Positions 1,663 through 13,684 of a DNA stretch of 64,000 nt are shown here, piece after piece; position 1 is the first letter of the stretch, and the number at the start of each line of letters is the position of its first letter. The translations under genes were made by a program, and so were the position numbers. Location of the stretch: positions 128,001 to 192,000 of the IMG/VR virus record IMGVR_UViG_3300033073_001153; one strand, written 5' to 3'. Source of the stretch: a virus. Lineage: Duplodnaviria > Caudoviricetes. The notes beneath the pieces are model-generated. The model saw only the letters and a list, made by a program, of their open reading frames with translations. It ran no database searches and had not been told where the DNA came from.

Positions 1663-2934
1663 TTAAGCTAGAAGATCCTTCACAACTACTCCATCTTTAA
1701 CAATAGCTGACGGTCTTCCACCTGCTGCCATAAGTTTTGTTTCTGGATCAATTCCAAGCTGATTATACATCGTAGCAGCTAAATTTTCAACTGTCAATGG
1801 ATTTGATTCCACATCACTTCCAGTCGCATCAGATGATCCATAAACATAGCCACGTTTAAATCCACCCCCAGCAAATACAACAGAGAATACTCGGGGCCAA
1901 TGATCTCTACCCGCATCTTTATTAATTTTTGGAGTACGTCCGAATTCAGAAGATATCATAACTAATGTAGAATCTAACATACCACGTTGATCTAGATCAT
2001 TAATCAGTGTTGCATATGCCTGATCAAATGGTGGTAGTTGTTTACCAATTCCATTAGCAATTCCACTGTGCATATCCCATCCACCATAAGTTACCGAAAC
2101 AAATCGTACACCCGCTTCTACTAATCTTCTAGCCATTAGTAATCTCTGTCCGGCTTGATTCATTCCGTATGCCTCACGCATCACTTGAGATTCTTTATTT
2201 AAATCAAATGCTTCTTTAGCTTTTGGTGAAGAAATTAAATCAAATGCCTTCTGATAAAATGTATCCATTGCTGCTAAATTATCACTAGATTCTAAATAAC
2301 GGAAATGACTATCAACTGTATCTAATATACTTCTTCTTCTTTCAAAGCGTTCTTCTCCGATTTCTACATTTAAATCGCGAACCTTGAAACCATTATTTGC
2401 TGGATCATTTCCTAAACTAAAAGGTCCATACGCTTTTGATAAGTACCCACTATCTGCTGGATCATTACCATTATTACCAATCTTTTGTGGAATACAAACA
2501 TATGCTGGTAAGTTATTCCGGTCTCCTAATTGATTAGAAACTACAGATCCAAATGAAGGATATTCTAATGCAGGAGAAGGACGATATCCAGTAAACATAG
2601 AAGTCACTCCACGTTCGTGTGCAGCTTCTCCGTGTGTCATAGAATGTACTACAGTAAGCTTATCAGCAATTTTAGCTGTCTTTTGTAAGTATTCTGAAAA
2701 TTGTAATCCAGCAACAGAAGTAGAGATGGCTTTTAATGGTCCACGATACTCAGAAGGAGCCAGTGGATGTGGATCAAATGTCTCATGCGATGCAGCACCA
2801 CCCGGCAAGAAGATATGAATCACCGACTGTGCTTTAGGTGTTAATGAGGATTCTGCTTGTAATTTAAGAATATCACCCATGGATAATCCCAACCCACCTA
2901 CAAGCCCAGTGTAGAGAAAGTCTCTTCTGTTCAT
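1663..2934 (-). CDS. DUF1501 family protein with Tat signal
   Basis: MNRRDFL twin-arginine start; IFLPGGASHETFDP, ARRLVEAGVRFV, GGWDMH, SEFGRTPKIN, GRDHWP; start moved to 2934 because TAAATA lies at 2940-2945. Confidence 0.9.
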   Translation of the reverse strand: MNRRDFLYTGLVGGLGLSMGDILKLQAESSLTPKAQSVIHIFLPGGAASHETFDPHPLAPSEYRGPLKAISTSVAGLQFSEYLQKTAKIADKLTVVHSMTHGEAAHERGVTSMFTGYRPSPALEYPSFGSVVSNQLGDRNNLPAYVCIPQKIGNNGNDPADSGYLSKAYGPFSLGNDPANNGFKVRDLNVEIGEERFERRRSILDTVDSHFRYLESSDNLAAMDTFYQKAFDLISSPKAKEAFDLNKESQVMREAYGMNQAGQRLLMARRLVEAGVRFVSVTYGGWDMHSGIANGIGKQLPPFDQAYATLINDLDQRGMLDSTLVMISSEFGRTPKINKDAGRDHWPRVFSVVFAGGGFKRGYVYGSSDATGSDVESNPLTVENLAATMYNQLGIDPETKLMAAGGRPSAIVKDGVVVKDLLA

Positions 2935-2947
2935 ATTACTATTTAAC

Positions 2948-2980
2948 AAAAAAGCCACACAAATTTTACTCTGTGTGGCT
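2948..2980 (-). terminator. Intrinsic terminator
   Basis: AGCCACAC/GTGTGGCT stem followed by T6 on minus strand. Confidence 0.7.
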
Positions 2981-3060
2981 AATTTTCAGCAGGATTTCTA
3001 TGTTACTACATTCCAATCATAACAAGACCTATATACCAGTGGGGTCGTGGTTACTGAAAG

Positions 3061-3168
3061 TTATTTTCGCTTTTTGCGGGTTTTGGTAACTGTAACCGTC
3101 ACAGTCTTACGAATTTTTTTGTCACGTACTTTTCTTTCTGTAACACGCTGACGAGTAATTTTAGACAT
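3061..3168 (-). CDS. 35-aa highly basic peptide
   Basis: MSKITRQRVTERKVRDKKIRKTVTVTVTKTRKKRK*, TAAATA at 3175-3180; below ORF-track cutoff. Confidence 0.65.
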   Translation of the reverse strand: MSKITRQRVTERKVRDKKIRKTVTVTVTKTRKKRK

Positions 3169-3181
3169 ATGTTTTATTTAT

Positions 3182-3394
3182 TTAAATTCCGTATTTTATA
3201 CACTTCAAAAAGAACTTCTTCTCATTATTAATTTCAAAAATAATAAAACCGTCTTCTCTCGCAACATTTTCGATGCCGTAGTTTTTACGGACAATTGAAT
3301 GACTAAAATATACCAGAAAATCTAAAATACGCAATCCGTTATTTTTAAAAGAATTGTAAAGACGGGTTTCGTCAATTCTATGGATTGGAAACAT
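3182..3394 (-). CDS. Small hypothetical protein (C-terminal KxFLxxIKYG family)
   Basis: Probable start MFPIHR at 3394, matching the paralog start at 4237; ends EKKFFLKCIKYGI. Confidence 0.65.
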   Translation of the reverse strand: MFPIHRIDETRLYNSFKNNGLRILDFLVYFSHSIVRKNYGIENVAREDGFIIFEINNEKKFFLKCIKYGI

Positions 3395-5896: not shown

Positions 5897-5900
5897 AACG

Positions 5901-5985
5901 TGGACCGTGGGTGAATTGAACACCCCGATGATATTAATCAAAGAGTTCTACAGACTCTTCCGCCTCCTTAACGGTTTACCGATCC
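5901..5985 (-). tRNA. trnY: tRNA-Tyr(GUA)
   Basis: AAGAGT-CTGTAGA-ACTCTT anticodon arm, long variable arm, GGGTG-TTCAATT-CACCC T arm; no encoded CCA. Confidence 0.85.
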
Positions 5986-8066: not shown

Positions 8067-9164
8067 TTAATTTAAATTACCTTCAAATAAATCTGGTCTG
8101 TTTTCTTCTAAAAATTTTCTATTATTTTCAGATAAATCAGATATTTTAAAATTATTTTGTGGTAAGTATCCACTTGATGTTAGTTTCTTAATAAAGAAAT
8201 CATTATCTTTTTTTAACATCAACAACTTTAATATAGCATCATGATATTTTTCAACTGGTTTTGTGTTTTGGGAACCTTTTCGTTCAGACAAAGATCTATC
8301 ATTGACATGATACATAAATGTTAAATGTGGGGCAGCTATAATTCTTCCTCCTTTATTTGTTATGGTACGATAACTAAGTAACTTTGTATTTTTGTCGTCA
8401 ACTCCGCCAGATACATTATTCCCACAATGTCCCATTGCTCTTCCTTCTTGTGTACAAAAAGAACTATCAATTATTTGCCATTCGTTATTTTCATCAATTT
8501 TTAATAAAGTTTTTGTTCTTTTTGTCTTTAAATCATTAGTAATGTCTACTATACCTTTAGAGGTTTTTTGCCATTCATGTTCAATATTTGCAAAATTTTC
8601 AAGCACATATTCGATAGATTGATTAACAAACCTAAAATCATCTATTTGTTGTATGTTTAGTGCTAAATAATGTTCTAGTTTTTCTAATAAAGTTTCCGTG
8701 CTAACTTCTATTGCACTGTAATATTCTATATCAAAGAAATCTGCTTTGAGATATTGTAATTTCATAAACTCTTCATAATATTCTGGATGTTTGGTTTTAA
8801 GAAAATATTCTATATTTGAACCACTTGCTTTTGTATCTACACGAATATGAAAAAGTTTTTTGTCAATTACTGCACAAATAGTTTCATTTATCGTTTTTCT
8901 AATATACCACTGAATAATATCATCTCTTCTAAGTTTATCTATTACATTTTTTAAACAAAACTTAAATTCTATTAAAAATTTAATTCTAGTATGATTGTAG
9001 TATACAACATCCATTTCACAATTAGCTGGATTATATATGCTATTTAATGGTTTTGCATCTGGAAATAATTTGAATAATTTATTGTACATATTCAAATACC
9101 TATTCACGCGAGATTCTTGTATAATCTCTAGATATCTTTCCCAGATAATATGCTTATCATTCAT
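8067..9164 (-). CDS. PcfJ-like domain late protein
   Basis: QEGRAMGHCG...LLSYR...PHLT; MNDKHIIWERY; TAAATA at 9170-9175. Confidence 0.6.
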   Translation of the reverse strand: MNDKHIIWERYLEIIQESRVNRYLNMYNKLFKLFPDAKPLNSIYNPANCEMDVVYYNHTRIKFLIEFKFCLKNVIDKLRRDDIIQWYIRKTINETICAVIDKKLFHIRVDTKASGSNIEYFLKTKHPEYYEEFMKLQYLKADFFDIEYYSAIEVSTETLLEKLEHYLALNIQQIDDFRFVNQSIEYVLENFANIEHEWQKTSKGIVDITNDLKTKRTKTLLKIDENNEWQIIDSSFCTQEGRAMGHCGNNVSGGVDDKNTKLLSYRTITNKGGRIIAAPHLTFMYHVNDRSLSERKGSQNTKPVEKYHDAILKLLMLKKDNDFFIKKLTSSGYLPQNNFKISDLSENNRKFLEENRPDLFEGNLN

Positions 9165-10066: not shown

Positions 10067-10144
10067 TGGTGGGAGTGGCGGGTGACGATCCCGCGAATTC
10101 ACTTTTTTATGAGAAAAGAGCTGTTCCAACCTAGCTTCACTCCC
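10067..10144 (-). tRNA. tRNA-Met/Ile2 (CAU), elongator type
   Basis: GGGAGTG/CACTCCC acceptor + ACCA; CTTTT-CTCATAA-AAAAG anticodon arm; GCGGG-ATCGTCA-CCCGC T arm. Confidence 0.85.
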
Positions 10145-10226: not shown

Positions 10227-10255
10227 ACTATACCACACTTTCCACTAATTGTCAA
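10227..10255 (-). promoter_or_regulatory. sigma70 promoter for tRNA-Met
   Basis: TTGACA-17nt-TATAGT with TG extension. Confidence 0.8.
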
Positions 10256-10261
10256 CTACTT

Positions 10262-10428
10262 TAGTGTGTTTTGATCCGTATTTTTTGTCACACTATTCAA
10301 CGAAATATTTACGGAGTTCCGTCTGAGCAATAGAGTTTACCCTCGACTCTATCGGAAAAGAATACCTACACAAGTTGTCTGAGTCACAACTCATATATCA
10401 GCTAGGCTTGCTCCAGCTCTCTCCCGTC
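10262..10428 (-). ncRNA. Putative structured ncRNA, copy 1 (paralog of 13514-13650)
   Basis: Shared 3' module CGxUGAAU-stem-ACAA..CGGAxCAAAA-stem with covarying UAGUGUG/CACACUA; 5' GAGAGAG stem. Confidence 0.6.
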
Positions 10429-10471
10429 ATATTTGCGCTTATGAAAGTTATAAAGATCTAATTAATTTTAC

Positions 10472-10520
10472 CTAGATACTTTTTATATTGCAAATATATT
10501 TTGATTGCTGTTCGTATCTA
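10472..10520 (-). ncRNA. AGAU-stem/RCWGCAA repeat RNA, copy D
   Basis: UAGAUAC GAACAGCAA ... GUAUCUAG. Confidence 0.65.
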
Positions 10521-10526
10521 ATCTTA

Positions 10527-10582
10527 CTAGATGCCTTTTTTTATTTCCATTTAATAATATAGAAATTTGCTGCAAGCATCTA
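10527..10582 (-). ncRNA. AGAU-stem/RCWGCAA repeat RNA, copy C
   Basis: UAGAUGC UUGCAGCAA ... GCAUCUAG. Confidence 0.65.
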
Positions 10583-10596
10583 AAATTTAACTTACC

Positions 10597-11385
10597 TTAG
10601 AATTTTACCACAATTCCCGCAGAAGTCAACCAGAAATCATTCTTTTCACCACGATTAGAATTATTTGTGTTAAAATAAGTTACACCAGTGGTAAGTGCTA
10701 CATTTTTGGTGATAGGTGTAGTAGTGTTTACACCTGCTGAAGTGTAGCCATAGCGTTCACCAGAAGTATAAAAATTCTTATTTCCGAATCCTACTGCTAC
10801 TGGAAAACCAATCTTTGTGGAACAGAGCGACACAGATGGAGATACGCCGACTTCGTAATAATTACCGATTGGTTGTCCTACACGCTTTGTACCGAAGTAA
10901 CCTTTGGCATAAGGATTCAAAGCGAGTGGAGTTAGACCAGTGTCATCGAAATGTAGACCTAGATTAACTCCTTGTGCATCTGGAAACCAGTTCTTATCAC
11001 TATTAACCCATTCATAGGTAGAAGTGAGTGTGACACGATCCTTATTAAAAAGGAGTCCTGCATTATATTCAGAACGAGACAGTCCATTTAGAGGAGATGC
11101 TGTATGAATATTTTGTTTAGTAGAACCAATTACAGAAACGTTCACTCCACCAAGTTCTAGCTTAGTTGGAAAGATTACACCAGCAAATGGTTGGAATACC
11201 GCACTAGAATCGAATACACGACCCTTGTTGATGTAACCAGATGATACTTCTACTCCGATAACACCAGTCACGAATGGATCTGACTTGGTTTCGAGAGGCT
11301 TAGTGTTCTTTGTTGAAGTTCCTGCGAATGACGCAACTGAAGTAGCGAGCAATGCAGCCAATGTTGTTGTTTTTGTTTTATTCAT
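10597..11385 (-). CDS. Outer-membrane beta-barrel protein with signal peptide
   Basis: Sec signal (LAALLATSVASFA), alternating amphipathic strands, C-terminal Phe (AGIVVKF). Confidence 0.75.
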   Translation of the reverse strand: MNKTKTTTLAALLATSVASFAGTSTKNTKPLETKSDPFVTGVIGVEVSSGYINKGRVFDSSAVFQPFAGVIFPTKLELGGVNVSVIGSTKQNIHTASPLNGLSRSEYNAGLLFNKDRVTLTSTYEWVNSDKNWFPDAQGVNLGLHFDDTGLTPLALNPYAKGYFGTKRVGQPIGNYYEVGVSPSVSLCSTKIGFPVAVGFGNKNFYTSGERYGYTSAGVNTTTPITKNVALTTGVTYFNTNNSNRGEKNDFWLTSAGIVVKF

Positions 11386-11430
11386 ATGTTTTATATGTTA
11401 CTTTGGTTTCCTTGATATCTCAAGAAATTT

Positions 11431-11889
11431 TTAGTTATTTTCCTCCATGTATTTTGAAATTTCTTCGGAATTCATGGCTGAATGTAATCTTACTGATTTG
11501 ATGATATTATGATCTAGAATAATGACAGACAGATTAGGTTCATGATTATGTCCTTCGCCAGTGTTGTGATATACTAGTAGGTCGTAATCTTTTTTATATT
11601 TGTCTTCTTCTTGTTGATCGACATTTTCTCCGGAATCGTGAATTAGTTGTTTATGAATCTTTTTTGGATTTAGAACTAATTCATAGATATAAGAGATTGG
11701 ATAAACTTCTTCGTCATTTACTTTAAAATCTGCTCTCCAGACGGCTTGGAAGAGTGAACCAGCATGAATGTTTTTATCTGGTCTGGATTTTACTCGTGAC
11801 AGAAAATCACCATTAAAAGAACAAGCATGATATACTGTGATATAGTCAGACTTTAAAATTTCGTCGAATGAAGTTTGTCTATCTATCAT
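11431..11889 (-). CDS. Possible ADP-ribosyltransferase-fold protein, coupled to DUF2828 gene
   Basis: TVYHAC...IHAGS..QA...IYELVL...YHNTGE; ATGA overlap with upstream gene. Confidence 0.4.
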   Translation of the reverse strand: MIDRQTSFDEILKSDYITVYHACSFNGDFLSRVKSRPDKNIHAGSLFQAVWRADFKVNDEEVYPISYIYELVLNPKKIHKQLIHDSGENVDQQEEDKYKKDYDLLVYHNTGEGHNHEPNLSVIILDHNIIKSVRLHSAMNSEEISKYMEENN

Positions 11890-13322
11890 ACTGTGACGCT
11901 ATCGTAACGTTTTACGTTAATCGTGTCAAGCATGACTTGTTCAGGGCTGATAATTTTACCAGATAGAAGAGAAGTAAGGATAGATGGAGAGCAACCAGAA
12001 ACTAAACAAGTACCCGCTTCATCAAAGCGTACTGGAACATGAGTATTTCGTGCGTTCACATTCCAAAAAATTAATTCTGGACGTTCATAACCAGCAGATT
12101 TGTATGCTGCGTCGATATTCTGAAAAATTGTTTTATCTGGATGTTGGCAAGCTTGGTTTATTTCCATGTCGCTAATAATGTAAACCTTACTAGGCATTTC
12201 GGACTGTGGGACATTATTTTCCACGGCAGAATCCAGAACCAAATTAAATACAGATTCTAGATTAGTAGACATTCCCCAATCAGCACTTTGGAGATTACGT
12301 ACTTTTTCTCTGATATTATTTCCAATAACTTTTTGTAGTGTGGGAGTTTCTGAGAAAGTAATAAAGTGATCTTTGAATTGTCCTTTATTACGTTCAGAAA
12401 TGTACATGGCGAGTGAAATCGCCACTGCCATTGGGCGACCACTCATCGATCCACTCACGTCGCAAACTACGATGCCATTAGAATTGTCATTATTCGTGTA
12501 GTCAGGAAGGCTATTCCATAGTACATCGAGAGTAGTAGACTCATCACCGGCAAAACATTTTTCAACAATATCATAGGGGTATAGGGTTCCTGAATTAATA
12601 GTAGTTTTTCCTGATTTTACATCTTGAATGAATTGTTGATAACGAACATGATCATGTTTTTCGAAAGCATCTTTATAATTCAAGGCAGCTTTAGAAGGAA
12701 CTCCCTTGTAATTAATTTCAGACCAGTTATTCGAACACATCTTGCGTTCTACGATATCTAGTTCAGAACGCTTTTGCGAAAGTGTCTTACGATAAGTACG
12801 TGGAGAAATTCCTAGAAAACTACGAATCTCTTCAGCGATTGTACGAGTTTCTTTACTAGAAGTATTGTTTGATGGCATCCATTTTGCGAAAAGTGATGGA
12901 GTTCCTTCACGAAACCATTCACTCTTAATCATTGGAAGAACATTATTCTGCCATACCTTTGTACCCCGTGTGGAATAGAGGTCATCCCAACGTCCAAATT
13001 CAACAACATTCTCTAGATTCTTAATTGCTACTTCGGGATATTCTTTAGATAGCCAATTAAAGATTGTACGAAAAGTTTTACGCTCGCCTTGTCCACCTCT
13101 TACGTCCCTGATGTAGAAGAGTGTCTTAACTGCAAGAAGTGGATCTTCCGCAAATGCTTTAGAGAATAGACCGATTACATCAGCTTCTTCACGAGTACGT
13201 AGAGCAGCACCTAGACCAAAAAAGTCCACAGTATGCTTTAGTGTGGATTTAAGTGCTGCTGCACCGTTTTCAGTGGTGGTGATGTTCTGTTTGTTTTCGA
13301 TGGCGTTTAGTAGTGCGTTCAT
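11886..13322 (-). CDS. DUF2828 family TROVE/Ro60-like protein with C-terminal vWA domain
   Basis: TTTENGA, FYIRDVRGGQGER, FGRWDDL, AKWMPS, TLYPYDIV, MIDAS DVSGSM, WGMSTNL, ISDM, IFWNV. Confidence 0.88.
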   Translation of the reverse strand: MNALLNAIENKQNITTTENGAAALKSTLKHTVDFFGLGAALRTREEADVIGLFSKAFAEDPLLAVKTLFYIRDVRGGQGERKTFRTIFNWLSKEYPEVAIKNLENVVEFGRWDDLYSTRGTKVWQNNVLPMIKSEWFREGTPSLFAKWMPSNNTSSKETRTIAEEIRSFLGISPRTYRKTLSQKRSELDIVERKMCSNNWSEINYKGVPSKAALNYKDAFEKHDHVRYQQFIQDVKSGKTTINSGTLYPYDIVEKCFAGDESTTLDVLWNSLPDYTNNDNSNGIVVCDVSGSMSGRPMAVAISLAMYISERNKGQFKDHFITFSETPTLQKVIGNNIREKVRNLQSADWGMSTNLESVFNLVLDSAVENNVPQSEMPSKVYIISDMEINQACQHPDKTIFQNIDAAYKSAGYERPELIFWNVNARNTHVPVRFDEAGTCLVSGCSPSILTSLLSGKIISPEQVMLDTINVKRYDSVTV

Positions 13323-13324
13323 AA

Positions 13325-13388
13325 CTAGATAGGTTTTTTATCGGCATGGAGCCGTTCGGTATATTTTTTTGGTTTGCTGTTACTATCT
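13325..13388 (-). ncRNA. AGAU-stem/RCWGCAA repeat RNA, copy B (ends 2 nt before DUF2828 ATG)
   Basis: AGAUAG UAACAGCAAACC ... CUAUCUAG. Confidence 0.65.
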
Positions 13389-13397
13389 TAAAGAGAA

Positions 13398-13465
13398 CTA
13401 GATGCGGTTTGTTCTGGGGAGAACTTTTGGTTTCATGTAATATGAGGTTTGCAGTTACGCATCTA
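13398..13465 (-). ncRNA. AGAU-stem/RCWGCAA repeat RNA, copy A
   Basis: UAGAUGCG UAACUGCAAACC ... CGCAUCUAG. Confidence 0.65.
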
Positions 13466-13479
13466 AAATTGATGGTGCT

Positions 13480-13507
13480 ATACTAGCAGAAATTTTAAGG
13501 TTGTCAA
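13480..13507 (-). promoter_or_regulatory. sigma70 promoter for repeat RNAs A/B + DUF2828
   Basis: TTGACA-16nt-TAGTAT with TGn extension. Confidence 0.7.
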
Positions 13508-13513
13508 CGGTTT

Positions 13514-13650
13514 TGATGTGTTTTGTTCCGGAATATTGTCACATCATTCATCGCTCGAACGTGATAGCCACATTCCTATAGCGACTAAGGCTAGTGTTTT
13601 CCATGCAATATCAGAGATACAACTCTAAACTAGCCTAACTCTCTCTGATG
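13514..13650 (-). ncRNA. Putative structured ncRNA, copy 2
   Basis: AUCAGAGA/UCUCUGAU stem, GGCUAGU/ACUAGCC pseudoknot, UAGUCGC/GUGGCUA hairpin, UGAUGUG/CACAUCA 3' stem; own promoter. Confidence 0.65.
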
Positions 13651-13656
13651 CTGACT

Positions 13657-13684
13657 ACTATAGCATAATAAAATAGGAAGTAAA
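13657..13684 (-). promoter_or_regulatory. sigma70 promoter directly upstream of ncRNA copy 2
   Basis: TTTACT-16nt-TATAGT with TGn extension. Confidence 0.65.

Follow-up and report, generated by a model that had tools for sequence, protein, structure and literature searches.

A pseudoknotted RNA family of phage tRNA and small-RNA gene clusters, present in two diverged copies around a predicted Ro60-like gene

We analysed a 64,000-nt stretch of phage DNA (the window), which spans bases 128001–192000 of the 242.6-kb IMG/VR virus record IMGVR_UViG_3300033073_001153 (rated 100% complete). Two places in the window, on the minus strand like all the window genes discussed here, encode one structured RNA family that is new to the libraries searched; the two RNAs are 174 nt (copy 1) and 143 nt (copy 2) long. 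The family folds into a 5' H-type pseudoknot, in which helix P1 is crossed by a second helix (PK), followed by a hairpin (P3, with an inner helix P3b), an invariant UGAAY linker and a 3' hairpin, P4. Sequence comparison established this fold, the transcribed strand, the family, its genomic niche and a positional rule relative to the next promoter. As to function we favour, at a probability of roughly 40%, a stable, processed small RNA of phage tRNA and noncoding-RNA clusters, whose 3' hairpin would also mark a unit boundary. The original prediction, made from the letters of the window, had placed two copies of a pseudoknotted RNA at 10262–10428 and 13514–13650 on the strength of a shared 3' module. 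This module was found there and occurs exactly twice in the 242.6-kb genome, where none is expected by chance; the limits are better drawn at 10256–10429 for copy 1 and 13508–13650 for copy 2.

Copy 2 scores 170 bits with R1, a model built from copy 2 alone, and has orthologs in the contigs labelled L167, L170, L084, L086, L085, L226, L209, L230 and L225. Its helix P1 (13610–13649) consists of 8 bp, pairing 13642–13649 with 13610–13617. The 5' strand of PK lies in the P1 loop (13629–13635) and forms 7 bp with the 3' strand at 13589–13595; these positions are 98.6% paired, with 2 pairs changed on both sides. Both the P1 proposed at the outset (AUCAGAGA/UCUCUGAU) and the pseudoknot GGCUAGU/ACUAGCC are real and show covariation, and the GUA that precedes the 3' strand of each P1 is kept in all orthologs. 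The hairpin at 13550–13585 contains P3 (13581–13585 with 13550–13554) and P3b (13570–13575 with 13557–13562), together with 4 compensatory pairs. P4 (13514–13546) has a covarying 7-bp stem and a 19-nt loop, ACAAUA-UUCCGGAA-CAAAA, with a self-complementary core. An open reading frame (ORF), of which none had been noticed in copy 2, is not conserved: no frame is open in all copies, and the copy lengths differ by non-multiples of three. Copy 2 starts shortly after a promoter of its own (TTTACT-16-TATAGT, 13657–13684, from a sequence scan), also noticed initially, which is matched by TTGACA-17-TAAGAT in four of five orthologs and by TTGACT/TAATAT in L086.

The fold is carried by covariation. In an alignment of six copy-2 sequences (A5), tested for P1, PK, P3, P3b and P4, 99% of cells are paired and 8 pairs, spread over all five helices, are changed on both sides. 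None of 500 shuffles reached the observed score, and sliding the partners by 1–3 columns left 0–1 both-side changes. An alignment of ten copy-2-type sequences from six lineages (A10) gave 96.6% paired cells and compensatory changes in 14 of 33 pairs, in all five helices including the pseudoknot (P1 5/8, PK 2/7, P3 2/5, P3b 2/6, P4 3/7). The PK helix lies outside the search model, so its support in A10 is unbiased. RNAalifold, given no structure, returned the same 26 nested pairs exactly, P1 among them. The structured, pseudoknotted RNA of the original prediction is thus upheld by covariation beyond the 3' hairpin, in P1, the pseudoknot, P3 and P3b. When single sequences were folded, the z-scores were weak (-1.6 and -1.8) and the result was another, nested fold; the central pair of its nested alternative to P1 is broken in three of six sequences, indicating that P1 and PK coexist as an H-type pseudoknot. 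The G-U pair that closes P3 is invariant in all ten sequences, which sets the transcribed strand as that of the neighbouring tRNAs.

Copy 1, with orthologs in L084, L085, L086, L170 and L167, follows the same plan (alignment A6), with the addition of a small hairpin and a variable hairpin in the P1 loop and of an extra hairpin, P2, between the 3' strands of P1 and PK. P1 (10353–10426) pairs 10418–10426 with 10353–10361; it is 98% paired with one-sided changes only, and its 5' half is invariant in six phages. Inside it lie the small hairpin (10401–10417), the PK 5' strand GAGC (10410–10413) and the variable hairpin (10372–10392). P2 (10330–10352) is followed by the PK 3' strand GCUC (10325–10328), the two together covering 10325–10352. 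P3 (10299–10323) has the GACG/CGUU base that is common to copy 2, and P4 (10262–10295; UAGUGUG/CACACUA, 20-nt A-rich loop) varies in pair type at two adjacent positions, with three types at one and two at the other. Copy 1 is nearly invariant in A6, where P4 alone covaries. R1 still detects it (E 1e-7 to 1e-3), and the paralogs placed side by side show compensatory differences in P1, P3 and P4. A model-based alignment of copy 1 to the copy-2 model misplaced P1 and was hence unused. Of the copy 1 pseudoknot first proposed (GAGCAA/UUGCUC), the GAGC/GCUC part is kept and the AA/UU extension is broken in four of six orthologs. A GAGUUGU said to be shared by the two copies turned out to be a coincidence, since that of copy 1 sits in a hairpin swapped for a different one in all five orthologs. 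The 5' third of copy 1 (10397–10448) is identical in six phages, and the ~20 nt just upstream nearly so, with two extra bases in the window alone; the Ro60-like proteins of these phages are merely 83–89% identical. No sigma-70-type promoter fits 10397–10448.

Relatives of the DUF2828 protein encoded between the two copies (83–89% identity) led to contigs L084, L085, L086, L167 and L170. In these five, both copies recur in the same order with 77–95% DNA identity, although the flanking protein genes differ. A short pattern of the P4 region gave 54 IMG/VR stretches, among which R1 picked six full-length members: L226 (E 8e-28), L209 (E 1.5e-17), L230 and L182 (E 5e-17), and L225 and L188 (E 5e-10). 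The homolog search in metagenomic phages suggested with the original prediction thus yielded the pair of copies in five related contigs and further members elsewhere. L226 repeats the layout of the window, that is RNA, promoter, handle RNA (a small RNA with AGAU/AUCU helix ends and a CAGCAA motif) and DUF2828 gene (84% identity). The other members lie with tRNAs, one copy per record: between tRNA-Ser and tRNA-Arg of a 13-tRNA array in L230, immediately upstream of tRNA-Met in L188/L225, and downstream of three tRNAs in L209. L225/L188 have a hairpin where copy 1 has P2. No DUF2828 gene was found in the records of L230/L182, L225/L188 and L209 with the Pfam model and a 35-sequence profile, a search that finds the gene in the window's genome; one of these records is 227 kb long and rated 100% complete. 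Copy 1 precedes a tRNA(CAU) in the window, L086 and L170. What precedes the RNA is an ORF stop in L188 and L209, a tRNA in L230 and, for copy 1, handle RNAs, and no promoter is evident in the intervening stretch; a promoter of its own was seen for copy 2 of the window's clade only. The family therefore belongs to the tRNA/small-RNA gene clusters of large freshwater phages, because members lie in tRNA arrays of records that lack DUF2828; the Ro60-like gene with its handles is one such cluster and no requirement. The suggestion that the RNA acts with the DUF2828/tRNA region is accordingly not supported as far as a specific DUF2828 partnership goes, and keeps the link to tRNA and small-RNA genes and to the promoter behind the RNA.

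Type-3 relatives (L168, L171, L173 and L174) are more distant RNAs of ~220 nt that follow tRNA-Met(CAU), at L171:7290–7510, L168:6480–6690, L173:5760–5975 and L174:3380–3590. They keep P3, a UGAR linker and P4; their stems differ (GGGGG/CCCCU, AAGGG/CCCUU). They end ~12 nt before the start (ATG) of an ORF, which is 70 aa long in L171 and L173. L169 has a degenerate P3-P4 module only, standing alone at 8110–8187 just before the ATG of another gene. As further observations, the type-3 RNA has a bulged helix in which GUCGAAUUU pairs with AAAUCGAC; within this helix lies a Y-RNA-like motif, GNCGAA (GUCGAAG in L173). In tRNA-array members a conserved GCCGGACAAC precedes the RNA (L188:355–375(-), L209:1700–1720(-), L230:3670–3692), with a second GCCGG a few bases upstream; the two could form a small CCGG hairpin or be a direct repeat, and are absent from the window's clade.

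Several other matches were set aside. L207, L190, L178 and ~16 similar contigs of sample 3300045988 have the short pattern only and no R1 match, and L207 looks coding; L086:6827–6871 has promoter similarity only. A first IMG/VR pattern gave one match, a chance match in a coding region (L003), and an exact copy-1 21-mer and a copy-2 5' pattern gave none in IMG/VR. In 596 Gb of prokaryote genomes the copy-1 21-mer has two matches, which are both coding, lack flanking similarity and are attributed to chance. Contigs of four DNA sequencing runs yielded no usable additional variants.

The DUF2828/DUF7788 gene of the window (11886–13322, 478 aa, Pfam match) is predicted to encode a Ro60 fold (TROVE plus vWA). 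Its AlphaFold2 (AF2) model has a pLDDT (predicted local distance difference test) of 83.7, and the top Foldseek matches in the PDB (E 5e-9 to 7e-6; template modelling (TM) score ~0.55–0.60 over the full length) are all Ro60, from phage phiLo, Xenopus and Deinococcus (Rsr). Because only Ro60 structures stand at the top, the locus is, as judged by this model, a phage Ro60-like gene surrounded by RNA genes. A PDB sequence search with a DUF2828 profile gave no match, and a literature search on DUF2828 returned incidental mentions only. Pairs of short AGAU-stem elements had been seen next to both copies, and these are handle RNAs: two upstream of the gene (13400–13464 and 13327–13388, within 13327–13464) and two upstream of copy 1 (10529–10581 and 10474–10520, within 10474–10581), all neighbours outside the pseudoknotted RNA. 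The window, L084, L085, L086, L167, L170 and L226 all preserve the succession copy 2, promoter, handles, DUF2828; all of them but L226 also preserve handles followed by copy 1, downstream of DUF2828.

This order, kept though the flanking protein genes differ, would suit an RNA that serves the Ro60-like protein as partner, client or cofactor, as a second class beside the handles and possibly tethered to them in one transcript. The predicted Ro60 fold itself and the loose likeness of P4 to a handle (helix, ACAR, A-rich tail) speak for it as well. However, family members occur in the L230/L182, L225/L188 and L209 records without DUF2828, including the complete 227-kb genome, and no handles were found in the stretches fetched around these members. 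Conversely, many DUF2828 loci carry handles but not the pseudoknotted RNA: a handle scan gave 150 hits (117 distinct) in ~65 of ~170 fetched DUF2828 loci, in every case on the gene's own strand. The scan misses both copies, which lack the AGAU/AUCU helix ends and CAGCAA as well as the GNCGAA of Y RNAs; copy 1 has an invariant GAGCAA in its small hairpin loop, and P4 loops start with ACAA or ACAG only. As the family exists without that protein, we now consider such a partnership decidedly unlikely. Handle RNAs share the clusters and the P4 layout of helix, ACAR, A-rich tail and helix; they are widespread beside DUF2828, whereas the pseudoknotted RNA is confined to few phage lineages. By these sequence patterns the handles are better candidates than copies 1 and 2 for partners of the DUF2828 protein. 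They had no match in Rfam or in the literature searched, lie mostly 100–350 nt upstream of the DUF2828 gene or just downstream (loci L006–L174), and look like a Y-RNA analogue for the Ro60-like family. Some enclose a T-arm-like GGTTCGATTCC (L013:4336, L023:5191, L038:5991).

Y RNAs associated with Ro60/Rsr comprise YrlA, YrlB, Yrn1 and the Yrl1/2 of phiLo (PMC4201824, PMC12135203). They have been identified within ~4 kb of a Ro60 ortholog on the same strand, by a long terminal stem with GNCGAAN0-1G or GGUCCGA and, in YrlA, by a tRNA-like domain with T and D arms (PMC4201824). The window RNA resembles them in lying <1.5 kb from a Ro60-fold gene on the same strand; a Ro60-like gene within ~4 kb and on the same strand is seen in the window, L084–L086, L167, L170 and L226, and not in L230/L182, L225/L188 and L209. 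Unlike Y RNAs, it has no terminal 5'-3' stem, as its 5' end pairs internally in P1 and its 3' end in hairpin P4. GNCGAA and GGUCCGA are absent from all rows of A5 and A6, and a tRNA-like domain was found at neither copy by ARAGORN or by Rfam at E up to 10. Lacking terminal stem, GNCGAA motif and tRNA-like domain, the RNA is not a Y RNA by these features.

A TTGACA promoter follows the end of each copy, as was first noted in the window, and proved to be part of a family-wide rule. A stretch of 10 or 11 nt of variable sequence separates the top of P4 (CAC) from a TTGAYW (-35) in 15 of 18 instances, and in 14 instances a spacer of 16–17 nt leads on to the -10 hexamer. Exceptions are L209, with a degenerate -35, and the type-3 RNAs. 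This strong promoter, of sigma-70 type by its sequence, drives tRNAs or the Ro60-like operon. After copy 2 it is TTGACA-16-TAGTAT (13480–13507), serving two handles and the DUF2828 gene, with hexamers kept and spacers varying among orthologs; after copy 1 it is TTGACA-17-TATAGT (10227–10255; 11/12 matches, TG before the -10), followed downstream by a tRNA with anticodon CAU (10067–10144, ARAGORN), an arrangement seen also in L086 and L170. The P4 loops are 18–20 nt long and consist of ACAR, a self-complementary core (UUCCGGAA, UCCGGA, GCCGGU, UUCGCGAA, CUCGCGAG, UUCUAGAA or GAUC) and AAAA.

Such regularity raises the question of a purely cis-acting boundary, in which the folded RNA would stop or stall upstream polymerase, or block 3' exonucleases, and spare the downstream promoter from occlusion, with no function in trans. 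The RNA is always last in its unit (after an ORF stop in L188/L209, tRNA-Ser in L230 and handles for copy 1), the distance from P4 to the -35 is fixed at 10–11 nt while the spacer letters vary, and in L230 P4 has a U run behind it. No terminator was called in the scan at P4, whose 18–20-nt loop and, except in L230, A-rich tail depart from a canonical intrinsic terminator (GC-rich hairpin, 3–8-nt loop, U run). An elaborate conserved pseudoknot core of ~100 nt would also be needless for a boundary, the sole product of the copy 2 promoter before the next promoter is the copy 2 RNA, and type-3 relatives have no downstream promoter. This is the main rival to the small-RNA reading, and we regard it as doubtful. 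Far less credit goes to an element acting at the DNA level only, with the A-rich P4 as an UP element or activator site. The fixed distance to the -35, the A tracts at UP-element position and the palindromic cores ~22–23 bp upstream of the -35 would agree with it; yet compensatory changes keep pairing, not sequence, in five helices over 140 nt, and on the opposite strand the invariant G-U pairs would appear as A-C. In addition, the two copies in one genome differ in stems and cores, and the module occurs with no promoter in type-3 relatives and L169, making a DNA-only role highly improbable. A more far-reaching proposal is a new RNA class working with the abutting promoter: the folded RNA, possibly as a loop-loop dimer, might bind to RNA polymerase or to some factor of phage or host, thereby ending the upstream unit and strengthening or timing the strong tRNA/small-RNA promoter that starts 10 nt further on; a different option is an RNA of a new self-cleaving or self-assembling kind. 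We rate this as unlikely; if true, it would be an RNA-built terminator-activator module without known counterpart.

The favoured small RNA was compared with known families. Rfam 15, at gathering thresholds and at E up to 10, gave no family at either copy, in their orthologs or in type-3 relatives, so that the description of the RNA as uncharacterised holds; a blastn search of the 4-kb locus against 50,697 phage GenBank records gave no match, and no counterpart of the pseudoknotted family was found in the literature searched. The placement in tRNA arrays recalls the HDV-like (hepatitis delta virus-like) theta ribozymes of gut phages, which are likewise pseudoknotted and embedded in phage tRNA arrays (PMC10879173), and a self-cleaving ribozyme could cut the polycistronic tRNA/small-RNA transcript. 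Their crossing P1/P2 topology is matched by P1 and PK, both covarying, and with the optional hairpin between the 3' strands of P1 and PK (copy 1, L225) the P1/P2/P4 topology of HDV-like ribozymes would result (PMC10879173). The family nevertheless lacks P3/L3, P1.1 and the catalytic-C junction: the 11–13 nt between the PK 5' and P1 3' strands, with a conserved UUU-N3-4-UUGUA segment, cannot form the 3-bp helix of an HDV P3, and the junction before the PK 3' strand is (U/A/C)AAAC, with no C-N-A-A. Threading onto the HDV-like fold fails by inspection, Rfam finds no HDV family or other ribozyme at E up to 10, and the 70-nt P3-P4 domain at the 3' side is foreign to that fold. Since copy 2 starts a few nt after its own promoter, cleavage there would serve nothing. 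Taken together, these points make a ribozyme very improbable. A ligand- or protein-sensing, riboswitch-like leader controlling read-through or translation of a downstream element appears very improbable too. Aptamer cores are often pseudoknots of the H type with conserved junctions, the 3' strand of P1 is also claimed by an alternative hairpin, and type-3 relatives stand directly before an ORF; but most members, including copies 1 and 2, precede an independent promoter and RNA genes rather than an ORF, no expression platform (terminator or start-site sequestration) was seen, and no Rfam riboswitch matched.

A closer parallel for a stable small RNA is offered by T4 species 1 (rnaC, 139 nt) and species 2 (rnaD, 119 nt), for which we know of no function. 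They are phage small RNAs of similar size, encoded on the same strand as the tRNAs, either within the tRNA cluster or at its end, and according to the annotation they share transcripts with the tRNAs. They differ in having no sequence or structure similarity to the family (R1 with filters off gave no hit over NC_000866 70908–71171), in the tRNA-like T arm of rnaC, which the family lacks, and in the absence of a promoter abutting rnaC or rnaD. Homology to rnaC/rnaD was therefore rejected, and they are positional analogues only. GOLLD and ROOL RNAs are found near tRNAs in phages and self-assemble through loop-loop contacts, which would be a precedent for the self-complementary P4 loop. They are 4–5 times larger, Rfam finds neither at the locus, and dimerisation of the present RNA is conjectural. 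Cryo-electron microscopy structures of these large bacterial RNAs as RNA-only complexes are reported in a preprint (bioRxiv 10.1101/2024.12.08.627333).

In the favoured small-RNA reading, the RNA would arise from a dedicated promoter in the case of copy 2, and at the end of an upstream transcript in the case of copy 1 and the tRNA-array copies, and be trimmed by the enzymes that process the neighbouring tRNAs. The stable product may then act through its folded body, binding a protein as decoy or scaffold, and would then be equivalent in function to T4 species 1 and 2. P4 would additionally shield the 3' end and mark the boundary with the next promoter, and two molecules may pair with each other through its palindromic loop. 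We consider loop-loop dimerisation through the palindromic P4 core a moderately supported idea; the palindromes were rejected as strong evidence because 4-nt palindromes are common in shuffles, where 42–55% of loops give one and 7–16% give a 6-nt palindrome. Further points weigh against the reading. P4 has no consistent U run, so that transcription could continue into the following unit. The close and constant spacing to the -35 suits a cis role no less than one in trans, and type-3 relatives end ~12 nt before an ATG with no promoter there. The covariation comes from about six lineages, and the nested helices of A10 were aligned with a model that encodes those helices.

What is known of phage tRNA clusters concerns chiefly their tRNAs, introns and homing endonucleases. 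The present RNAs are a second family in the niche of the T4 small stable RNAs, unrelated to those and well supported by covariation. Their defined pseudoknotted fold, strict placement before a promoter and naturally occurring variants (the two paralogs, one form with an insertion and the type-3 form) make the role of non-tRNA RNAs in phage tRNA arrays directly testable. In addition, the candidate RNAs of the Ro60-like (DUF2828) particle itself, the handles, can now be separated from a mere neighbour, the pseudoknotted RNA.

Other features of the window and its relatives were recorded alongside. On the minus strand ARAGORN calls tRNA-Tyr at 5900–5985 and, at 10067–10144, tRNA-Met(CAU), in which the T loop (AUCGUCA) is unusual and CCA is encoded. 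The Rfam gathering run over the whole window reported no tRNA, yet Rfam finds tRNAs in L086 and L171. A 152-aa gene (11431–11889, minus strand) without Pfam match overlaps the DUF2828 stop codon (ATGA). The AF2 model of its product has a pLDDT of 36 and is unusable, and the lead from a protein atlas is ART-PolyVal ADP-ribosyltransferases (score 0.91). This gene is absent in L085 and L170 and is swapped for an unrelated 172-aa gene in L168, L171 and L174; a 125-aa gene of L172 aligns with the 172-aa type. Between the Ro60-like operon and copy 1 lies a 262-aa gene (10597–11385, minus strand) whose Pfam match, to an outer-membrane porin of Campylobacter, is faint (E 0.009); the gene is kept in most related contigs and missing in L085, L170 and the more distant L169 and L172. 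In L169, a 141-kb contig, a T4 Rnl1-type RNA ligase gene (2247–3347) stands directly upstream of the DUF2828 gene, and in the 82.7-kb contig of P0008 the DUF2828 gene is followed, ~2.3 kb downstream, by a Cas12f1-like/TnpB gene (PF07282) in opposite orientation.

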